Source: a virus (lineage: Duplodnaviria > Heunggongvirae > Uroviricota > Caudoviricetes). Taken from it: a stretch of 16,731 nucleotides of DNA. A program made the translations under genes and the position numbers. The notes beneath the pieces were generated by a model, which was given only the letters and a program-made list of their open reading frames with translations, was not told the DNA's origin and searched no databases. Below, in pieces: positions 9,252 to 12,200 of the stretch (positions are counted from its first letter, which is position 1; each line of letters begins with the position of its first letter). The stretch lies in IMG/VR virus record IMGVR_UViG_2576861133_000011, one strand, 5' to 3'.

Positions 9252-12200
9252 ATGACCACTGTGAATAAAAAGTTAAAAAAAACTGCATCTGGCGCGATTA
9301 CATGGTCGGTAATTGTTACCCAGATATTATCTCCAGTTTCTCTTTCTTTGATCCCAGCAAACAGTTTTGCATCATCTGGTAATAAAGATGTTACGCAAAT
9401 TTATGCCAGCGATGAGCATGCAAATAAAGTGGCCTCATTTGCAGCAAGTGCAGGTCAGAGCCTGGCGAATAATAATGCAAGTAGTTTTGCTGTAAATACT
9501 TTATCAACTCAGGCGACAAAAGAGGTCGTCGACTGGTTGCAACAATATGGCAATGCGCGCATCAAGCTTAATGTCGATGATTCTTTTTCCTTGAAGGATT
9601 CATCATTCGACTTTTTATATCCATGGCTGGATACTCAGGATTATGTGTTATTCAGTCAGACATCACTACATCGTACTGATGACCGAAATCAGACCAATAT
9701 TGGTTTGGGGATTCGTCATTTCACTCCTGATAACGCAATGTTGGGTGCGAATGTTTTCTATGATTACGATTTAAGTCGTAGTCACTCTCGTGCAGGTTTT
9801 GGGGTTGAGTACTGGAGGGATTATTTCAGGCTTGGTGTAAATACCTATTTTGGTCTATCTGACTGGAAGAACAGTCGTGATATTGATGATTATCTGGAAA
9901 GACCTGCAAATGGCTGGGATTTTTCTGCTGAAGGATGGCTACCTGCTTATCCGCAATTAGGGGCATCTATTCAGTTTGAAAAATATTATGGTAAAAATGT
10001 CGGGTTATTTGGAAGCGATAACCTGCAGGAAAACCCTTACGCAGTTACTGGGGGAATTTCTTATACACCAGTTCCTCTGATTAAGTTTTCTGCACAGCAT
10101 AAGCAAGGACAGAGCAACACTCACGATACAACCTTTGGTGTTGAGTTTAATTATCGCCCGGGCGTTTCCTTGGCTGAACAGCTTAGCAGCGATAATGTTG
10201 CAGTTATGCGAGAAGTCCAGAACCGGCGTTATGATTTTGTTGAACGAAATAACAACATTGTTCTGGAGTACAAGAAGAAGCATGCACTGAAAATCAGTTT
10301 GCCAGAGTCTGTTCAGGGGGAGGGGGAATCAATCATCCCTGTAACACTGACAATCAACAATGCTAGTGGTGGTATCAAGTCTGTACAGTGGAATGATAGT
10401 GCATTCACTGCGGCTGGCGGCAAGATCAGTGGAAATGGCACATCATGGCAGATCACTTTACCGGCTTATAAAAGCGAAGGTGTAAATTCGTGGAATGTTG
10501 GAGCCACAGTACAGGATAACAGAGGCAACGTTTCCAACTATGCCGTGATGAATATTAGCGTTACTGATAGTGGTGTCTCGACGGCTGATTCGTCTTTTAC
10601 ACTGGATGGAGATTCGTCGCCGACAATCTCTGCTGATAGCCAATCCACTTATCCGATAGTATTAAGCCTGAAAGATAGTAACGGTAAGGCATTAACCGGA
10701 CTGGCTGATGACATTGAAATGTCAGTGGAATTTACAGCAGATAGCAATAGTGCTCGACAGCGTGAAACGGTAACTGCTCCGTCATTAGGCGCGGTAGAGG
10801 AAATCTCTGCTGGGGTATATCGCTCTGTTCTGACTGCTGGTTCGCAGGCTGGTACGGTACGTGTAACTGCAAAAGTTCAGGGAAAAACCTTTACTCTGAA
10901 TATTAAGCAGGCAGCCATTACTGATAGTGATGTATCGACAGCTGATTCGTCTTTTACACTGGATGGAGATTCGTCGCCGACGATCTCTGCTGATAGCCAA
11001 TCCACTTATCCGATAGTATTAAGCCTGAAAGATAGTAACGGTAAGGCATTAACCGGACTGGCTGATGACATAACTGATAGTGATGTATCGACAGCTGATT
11101 CGTCTTTTACACTGGATGGAGATTCGTCGCCGACGATCTCTGCTGATAGCCAATCCACTTATCCGATAGTATTAAGCCTGAAAGATAGTAACGGTAAGGC
11201 ATTAACCGGACTGGCTGATGACATTGAAATGTCAGTGGAATTTACAGCAGATAGCAATAGTGCTCGACAGCGTGAAACGGTAACTGCTCCGTCATTAGGC
11301 GCGGTAGAGGAAATCTCTGCTGGTGTATATCGCTCTGTTCTGGCTGCTGGTTCGCAGGCTGGTACGGTACGTGTAACTGCAAAAGTTCAGGGAAAAACCT
11401 TTACTCTGAATATTAAGCAGGCAGCCATTACTGATAGTGATGTATCGACAGCTGATTCGTCTTTTACACTGGATGGAGATTCGTCGCCGACGATCTCTGC
11501 TGATAGCCAATCCACTTATCCGATAGTATTAAGCCTGAAAGATAGTAACGGTAAGGCATTAACCGGACTGGCTGATGACATTGAAATGTCAGTGGAATTT
11601 ACAGCAGATAGCAATAGTGCTCGACAGCGTGAAACGGTAACTGCTCCGTCATTAGGCGCGGTAGAGGAAATCTCTGCTGGAACTGATAGTGATGTATCGA
11701 CAGCTGATTCGTCTTTTACACTGGATGGAGATTCGTCGCCGACGATCTCTGCTGATAGCCAATCCACTTATCCGATAGTATTAAGCCTGAAAGATAGTAA
11801 CGGTAAGGCATTAACCGGACTGGCTGATGACATTGAAATGTCAGTGGAATTTACAGCAGATAGCAATAGTGCTCGACAGCGTGAAACGGTAACTGCTCCG
11901 TCATTAGGCGCGGTAGAGGAAATCTCTGCTGGGGTATATCGCTCTGTTCTGGCTGCTGGTTCGCAGGCTGGTACGGTACGTGTAACTGCAAAAGTTCAGG
12001 GAAAAACATTTACTCTCAGTATTAAGCAAACAGCAACAACAGAACCTGATTCTGAGGTCAGTGCTGTTTTAACCGCTGCACCAGCAGAACAGGTAGTTGG
12101 TTACAATATCAATCTACAACTGGCAGTGAAGGATTCACAAGGAAATGCAATCACTGGTGATAACACTCTGAGCTTTTATGCTCTTAACCAGGCAGAAGGA

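Follow-up and report, generated by a model that had tools for sequence, protein, structure and literature searches.

The window analyzed here, a stretch of 16,731 nucleotides (nt) recorded as the virus IMGVR_UViG_2576861133_000011 (IMG/VR; Caudoviricetes), is lambdoid prophage DNA from sequence type 131 (ST131) of Escherichia coli, as its open reading frames (ORFs) and annotated relatives indicate. It carries a gene for an adhesin of the inverse-autotransporter (type Ve, intimin/invasin-like) kind, and as the window reads, the passenger region of this adhesin holds five copies of a repeat unit, two of which are truncated in frame. An insertion sequence (IS) of the IS66 family follows the gene. 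At face value such an array would suggest a surface adhesin diversifying by way of broken immunoglobulin (Ig)-like domains; the evidence favors an error of sequence construction. The partial repeats, which are the headline feature of the array, are most likely not real, and the locus itself is an ordinary ST131 allele, in which three 357-nt units follow one another head to tail and each codes for a single FdeC-like Ig domain.

Results

An inverse-autotransporter adhesin with a repeat array

The N-terminal region of the encoded protein matches the IAT_beta profile (PF11924) at residues 57-334 and over profile positions 3-279 of 279 (E = 6.5e-101), and the barrel (amino acids (aa) 97-341) also matches the structures of invasin (PDB 4e1t, 1.1e-73) and intimin (PDB 4e1s, 7.8e-63). 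In the passenger, Pfam matches to Big_1 (3.3e-56) and Invasin_D3 (3.4e-65) extend over five and eight stretches, respectively. An N-terminal, 12-stranded IAT_beta barrel followed by a C-terminal passenger of tandem Big_1/Invasin_D3 Ig-like domains is the arrangement by which inverse autotransporters are recognized. Inspected for a signal peptide, the N-terminus, MTTVNKKLKKTASGAITWSVIVTQILSPVSLSLIPANSFASS, begins with a basic stretch and also contains a hydrophobic core and an A-x-A-like site. The domain composition makes the protein an inverse-autotransporter surface adhesin, in agreement with the original prediction, and each repeat unit corresponds to one Ig-like domain. Large members of the family carry a LysM domain and a C-type lectin cap, which are not obligatory; neither is found among the Pfam matches of the adhesin at E <= 0.01. 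Goh et al. (2019) catalogued six E. coli inverse-autotransporter (IAT) genes in strain SMS-3-5 and listed them by size (fdeC, yeeJ and iatA-D; PMC6714894). Identity with FdeC, YeeJ or any of IatA-D was rejected, as the reported sizes and the fixed chromosomal positions of the orthologues disagree with the gene described here. In finished ST131 genomes the gene measures 4266 nt and encodes 1421 aa (coding sequence (CDS) WP_022645049.1 of strain EC958).

A repeat search placed five in-register unit copies at 10563, 10920, 11073, 11430 and 11682, with spacings of 357, 153, 357 and 252 nt. Tandem Repeats Finder (TRF) returned a 153-nt period (2.0 copies, 99%) and a 252-nt period (2.0 copies, 100%), and translation of 10563-12038 gave 119 + 51 + 119 + 84 + 119 aa in a single frame (492 aa, 1476 nt). 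The prediction of five near-identical copies with in-frame partial units of 51 and 84 aa was thus an accurate reading of the letters, and alignment confirms the near-identity claimed at the nucleotide level: native full units 1 and 2 differ at six positions, and units 2 and 3 at one position and the 3' end, a likeness far above chance expectation. Near-identical 357-nt DNA units with 1-6 differing positions plus the 3' edge of the array, each encoding one Ig domain, make this an array of the type described for the Yersinia ruckeri adhesin YrIlm. The features of the window are collected in Table 1, where X1, X2 and X3 denote the blocks that occur twice.

Table 1. Features of the window and their correspondence to finished ST131 genomes
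Feature	Position in window	Strand	Correspondence or evidence
Inverse-autotransporter (type Ve, intimin/invasin-like) adhesin ORF	9252..13922	+	4671 nt, 1556 aa as the window reads
Beta-barrel translocator domain	9420..10253 (aa 57-334)	+	Pfam PF11924
Full unit 1	10563..10919	+	Native ST131 unit 1; one FdeC-like Ig domain; window 1850-11071 is 100% identical to EC958
51-aa 'partial unit'	10920..11071	+	First 152 nt of native unit 2, recurring at 11073-11224 (block X1)
Junction 1 base A	11072	+	Native T on both sides; ATT -> ATA, Ile retained
Full unit	11073..11429	+	Equals native unit 2; unit position 252 is T
84-aa 'partial unit'	11430..11680	+	First 251 nt of native unit 3, recurring at 11682-11932 (block X2)
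Junction 2 base A	11681	+	Codon -> GGA, Gly retained
Full unit	11682..12038	+	Native unit 3; diverged 3' end runs into next Ig domain
Six more Ig-like (Big_1/Invasin_D3) passenger domains, mutually divergent	12039..13919	+	Pfam, domain alignment
Terminator-like hairpin	13934..13954	+	Directly past adhesin stop codon
First copy of IS66 (ISEc23-like) left end	13983..14228	+	246 nt from terminal GTAAGCG (block X3)
Junction 3 base A	14229	+	Native G on both sides
IS66-family element	14230..16731 (to window end)	+	100% identical to 327_BP0021 locus 11582-14083
IS66 ORFs tnpA, tnpB, tnpC	14315-14740, 14737-15087, 15118-16731	+	ORF list
Integrase	1-1143	-	ORFs and annotated relatives
Replication genes O and P	7285-9002		ORFs and annotated relatives
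Matching segment	1850-11071		EC958 locus 1-9222 (BLAST)
Matching segment	11073-11680		EC958 locus 9071-9678, 152 nt jump back (BLAST)
Matching segment	11682-13982		EC958 locus 9428-11728, 251 nt jump back (BLAST)
Matching segment	11994-14228		327_BP0021 locus 9593-11827 (BLAST)
Matching segment	14230-16731		327_BP0021 locus 11582-14083, 246 nt jump back (BLAST)

Three duplications share one junction form

Each of the window's three perfect local duplications takes the form X + A + X, where X is a block of 152, 251 or 246 nt and A is a single base set between its two copies. Two of these duplications generate the partial units of the adhesin. The third (13983-14475, found by both TRF and the repeat search) lies outside the adhesin gene, 2 kb downstream of the array, with block X3 beginning at the first base of IS66. 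Neither this third duplication nor the junction bases at 11072 and 11681 had been remarked upon in the original prediction. Because the third duplication falls outside the gene and at the first base of IS66, the phenomenon is tied to repeat boundaries and not to the adhesin. Indeed, all three breaks lie within the two repeat structures of the region, namely the tandem array and a multicopy IS.

The junction A never equals the native base after or before X, these bases being T/T, G/T and G/G at joints 1, 2 and 3. Joint 1 reads ...GATGACAT-A-ACTGATAGT, where the native continuation after GACAT is T and the native base before ACTGAT is likewise T; joint 2 reads ...TCTGCTGG-A-ACTGATAGT, where G natively follows X and T precedes it. 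The corresponding strings across junctions 1, 2 and 3 are GACATAACTGAT, GCTGGAACTGAT and CTCTGAGTAAGCG. Block X2 stops just short of unit position 252, at which alone the first 326 nt of units 2 and 3 differ. Microhomology is present at junction 1 (CATT) and junction 3 (TGG), and base-by-base inspection revealed none at junction 2. Clean microhomology joints were consequently rejected as an account of the duplications, as CATT and TGG predict no extra A and junction 2 offers no microhomology.

Removal of the duplicated blocks restores the finished sequence

Once the three A + X blocks (652 nt) are taken out, the window is identical to EC958 across 11,728 nt, as far as the IS66 insertion site, and its last 4,491 nt are identical to 327_BP0021 (NZ_OZ121077.1), a genome that has IS66 at the identical site without the extra copy of the left end. 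The first 2,100 nt of the window are also identical to EC958. After removal, no other difference is seen in any base compared with these two genomes. The second of them carries a garbled array and an adhesin gene annotated as frameshifted, and for this reason served as comparator for the IS66 flank only and not for the array. The garbling, at locus 9312-9593 of a genome labeled 'complete' and in a frameshifted gene of 4119 nt, probably stems from an error in the long-read consensus within the repeats.

Whole units vary among E. coli genomes

The set of complete E. coli genomes comprised 5,426 genomes, in which 562 records hold the adhesin gene. At least 444 complete E. coli records contain an intact canonical joint between units. 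Junctions 1 and 2 are intact in none of the 5,426 genomes, the best matches always falling into two separate pieces, and junction 3 is absent from all 4,247 records with the IS66 element. The junction strings, taken exactly or with a wildcard at the A, gave no match in viral, genome or metagenome contig collections, no phage record was found to contain the region, and the exact 1556-aa protein is absent from both the gene-position index and a collection of 15 billion proteins. Protein look-ups with X at the junction codons, which treat the A as a stand-in for N, were also empty.

In 60 gene-holding records, sampled with a spread across the 562, a flanks-only query returned intact gene spans of 4266 nt (n = 32), 3909 nt (n = 11), 3912 nt (n = 1) and 3552 nt (n = 8). 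Spans of 4266, 3909 and 3552 nt correspond to three, two and one whole units, and, the single 3912-nt span aside, a partial increment was never seen in this sample. Almost all of the records with 4266 nt have ST131-identical flanks, and the regular 4266-nt gene is also present in S4, R10 and AVS0153, which belong both to this sample and to the 67 genomes that share the IS66 insertion of the window. The adhesin protein occurs in forms of 1302, 1421 and 1540 aa, with two, three and four units respectively; protein search found the four-unit form as one protein with 27 member sequences (P0001) and a second with a single member (P0002). Whole-unit copy number thus varies from 1 to 4 among E. coli strains. 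In H138, two units stand between ST131-identical flanks, which points to recent contraction.

Recent expansion and contraction of the array had been predicted. This holds for whole units, which are gained and lost (one, two or three in finished genomes, with a four-unit protein in existence). The partial units lend no support as signs of recombination or slippage: they are joined by a non-native A, are absent from the 5,426 genomes, have a look-alike at IS66 and leave a sequence identical to the finished genomes when removed. Gain or loss of whole units would likely proceed through homologous misalignment of near-identical units, by replication slippage or unequal recombination, and would be expected to alter the length of the adhesin stalk.

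The two-unit form (1302 aa; proteins P0014-P0120) dominates draft assemblies, including those labeled ST131, whereas nearly every finished ST131 genome has three. It is therefore probable that many drafts have collapsed, which suggests that the loss of one unit is routine in short-read drafts of the array. Draft assemblies probably report too few adhesin units, a matter of concern to anyone typing or expressing the adhesin.

An out-of-register duplication is nevertheless on record in the same gene. E. coli UMEA 3489-1 (KI669372.1, locus 2680-3878) carries a 720-nt in-frame tandem duplication covering a portion of the domain before, one unit and 79 codons of the next. The joint is clean, with GG microhomology, and the copies are 99.2% identical, with 4 mismatches in 479 nt; from its sequence it looks like a genuine, older rearrangement.

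The joints fall within the Ig fold

The repeat unit aligns with the Ig domains of FdeC (PDB 4e9l; E = 3.6e-7), its start, TDSDVSTADSSF, coinciding with the start of an FdeC domain, and in a domain alignment its register agrees with that of the six Ig domains further downstream in the adhesin. An AlphaFold model of a single unit (predicted local distance difference test score (pLDDT) 53.7), built with a 7-sequence alignment of the adhesin's own domains and used for strand positions only, has strands at residues 13-16, 34-37, 51-59, 79-81, 84-86, 97-105 and 108-115. An alignment-free model of the five-copy region (pLDDT 36.6) is unusable as a model, though it gave a matching strand pattern in every full unit.

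The two joints fall mid-domain, after unit residues 51 and 84, and each is followed by a whole domain from its beginning. The partial units, if real, would therefore be orphan N-terminal fragments; the chimeric Ig domains that had been envisaged at these joints are not what the mapping gives. On the modeled strands, the 51- and 84-aa fragments would miss five and three strands, respectively, and would be unable to close a beta-sandwich.

Prophage context

In EC958 the corresponding prophage adjoins icd. Further prophage genes in the window, recognized from ORFs and annotated relatives, are exo, bet, gam and the repressor region. The adhesin is a passenger gene of the prophage, with replication gene P on one side and the nin region on the other, and the serum survival gene iss is found downstream in relatives of the same prophage. 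Within the gene for the O-like replication protein (7726-7838) are short tandem repeats of ~19-23 nt, TTTACCCGAATCAGGTAAA-like, that resemble the iterons of a lambda-type origin.

The IS66 insertion (window 13983; EC958 locus 11728; 327_BP0021 locus 11582) lies 60 nt past the adhesin stop codon, just beyond the hairpin, and within the 3' end of a convergent alpha/beta-hydrolase gene (1044 nt in EC958, 1032 nt in 327_BP0021). This exact insertion is common to 67 complete genomes and therefore marks an ST131 sublineage. In another lineage, represented by a protein of 1420 aa with 182 member sequences (P0009), a copy of IS66 lies within the 3' end of the adhesin gene itself, and the last residues of the protein are swapped for read-through of the IS end (...WIKAKSKRKLTAVCSHQTRIGNLDAHLI). 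Insertions of IS3, IS2 or ISEc52 occur in the gene in other finished genomes. Thus, the adhesin gene is a frequent IS target.

Discussion

Taken together, our findings point to the partial units and the duplicated IS66 end as an artefact of joining overlapping pieces of sequence, a reading to which we assign a probability of about 0.75; its cause, whether assembly or stitching, is inferred. With handling of the data after assembly counted in, an artefact becomes very probable. The window would then consist of four pieces of ordinary ST131 sequence (to 11071, 11073-11680, 11682-14228, and 14230 onward), of which consecutive pieces would overlap by 152, 251 and 246 nt and would have been abutted rather than merged, with a single placeholder base, read as A, set between them. 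The joining could date from assembly, scaffolding, gap closing or later stitching. Some scaffolders place a single n between contigs that overlap without having been merged. All of the breaks fall in the tandem array or the multicopy IS, which is where assemblies, scaffolders and gap closers fail. The breakpoints are at repeat boundaries, the same junction form recurs at unrelated repeats, and removal of the extra blocks restores identity to finished genomes; by contrast, what would be looked for in a natural partial unit is missing, as each joint has a non-parental A and neither the 5,426 genomes nor the contig collections provide an independent isolate. The original prediction had allowed that the pattern might be a short-read assembly collapse. 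The suspicion of an assembly error was right in spirit, but the error would be spurious extra sequence and not a collapse.

Several observations weigh against an artefact. Both intragenic duplications are multiples of three and their junction codons are synonymous, as selection on a real allele would favor, although the chance of at least two of three events being multiples of three is ~0.26. Blocks X1 and X2 start at the same unit position (1), which a simple de Bruijn-graph model fails to predict. Such an account of the piece boundaries was rejected, as the sequence shared between units starts at unit position 272 and not at 1; only the end of the second piece, just ahead of variable position 252, fits a graph branch. 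The idea that A stands for N is unsupported, the look-ups with X at the junction codons having given nothing. Lastly, the duplication in UMEA 3489-1 indicates that out-of-register, in-frame events do exist elsewhere, though there with a clean joint and diverged copies.

The preserved frame, the synonymous junction codons and the UMEA 3489-1 duplication are also what can be said for the alternative that the partial units are real, along with the CATT microhomology at junction 1 and the recombinogenic nature of an array that has 1-4 units in nature. Illegitimate events (RecA-independent template switches) in one ST131 isolate would then have copied, in frame, 153 nt of one unit and 252 nt of another from their starts, lengthening the adhesin by two orphan half-Ig segments, and an unrelated but similar event would have duplicated the left end of IS66. 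We regard this as unlikely. It needs three independent duplications in 3.6 kb, with no other difference from the references over the compared bases; it leaves the A at each junction unexplained, where microhomology joints would be clean, as in UMEA 3489-1, and where junction 2 has no microhomology at all. The junctions are found in 0 of 5,426 finished genomes and in none of the contig collections scanned, and the fragments would, as modeled, miss three to five of the strands of the domain. That all three X-A-X structures are real and stem from a burst of template switching with a non-templated A at repeat boundaries, in one ST131 isolate, is to our mind quite unlikely. If true, such a burst would have given the adhesin its two orphan half-Ig segments and IS66 its tandemly duplicated end, and would represent an uncommon way, perhaps linked to a polymerase or a transposase, for a surface protein to vary in length out of register.

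Alternatively, the duplications may have been made after assembly, in data handling, for example when overlapping stored fragments were rejoined or Ns turned into A. The window opens exactly with the first base of the integrase CDS and closes with the final base of the tnpC ORF, and was therefore cut by gene coordinates; moreover, neither the protein nor the junction strings occur in any public collection searched. Yet the piece boundaries match repeat boundaries (the unit start twice and the first base of IS66), which an assembler or scaffolder fits better than arbitrary chunking does, and the look-ups with X at the junction codons returned nothing here either, so that we hold this origin to be very unlikely. 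Scarcely credible is the non-templated addition of an A at a template end by a polymerase or reverse transcriptase, which then switches template, with the X-A-X concatemers fixed in the chromosome by the Red functions of the prophage (exo/bet/gam): where templates are switched, one extra A at the joint is a classic sign of non-templated addition, and the prophage does encode exo, bet and gam, but no reverse transcriptase or comparable element was seen in the window, we know of no precedent for such a process, the junctions are unique to the window sequence, and the simpler artefact model covers the same facts.

The practical lesson is that junction bases unexplained by their flanks, and look-alike duplications at the ends of nearby IS elements, should be checked for before a repeat array is given a biological reading. 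A modest real residue is left: a prophage-borne ST131 inverse autotransporter, outside the six E. coli IAT genes of the published catalogue (PMC6714894), that varies by 1-4 whole units.

This adhesin resembles invasin and intimin (PDB 4e1t, 4e1s, 1cwv and 6tqd) in its barrel, in a first passenger domain that gives an intimin D00-type match and in downstream domains that match invasin. It differs in that no LysM domain or C-type lectin cap is detected, and binding to Tir or integrins cannot be inferred. FdeC/EaeH of E. coli (PDB 4e9l) belongs to the same protein class, and it is to the Ig domains of FdeC that the repeat unit aligns; however, FdeC/EaeH is encoded by a chromosomal core-genome gene and has 1415-1416 aa with divergent domains, whereas the adhesin described here is prophage-borne, has 1183-1540 aa and contains near-identical repeats.

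With the duplications that scaffolding and gap closing are known to introduce, the window shares perfect local copies at repeat boundaries, their restriction to one assembly and the recovery of the reference upon their removal (tandem-repeat errors are reviewed in PMC6868369). Misassembly of identical Ig-domain repeats in adhesins of this kind is documented (PMC6868369; PMC6714894). Among the closest parallels is YrIlm of Y. ruckeri, whose identical Ig repeats vary from strain to strain and are assembled wrongly from short-read data (Wrobel et al. 2018, as described in PMC6868369; also noted in PMC6714894). On that account both proteins are inverse autotransporters with tandem Ig-like domains identical, or nearly so, at the DNA level (the YrIlm unit being ~300 bp), with a copy number that varies between strains and with arrays that have been misreported. 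YrIlm, as described there, is chromosomal and has more than 20 units and a C-type lectin cap, whereas the adhesin of the ST131 prophage has 1-4 units of 357 bp and no detected cap. The assembly errors also run in opposite directions: for YrIlm what is known is a collapsed array, whereas here the error would consist of spurious extra sequence.

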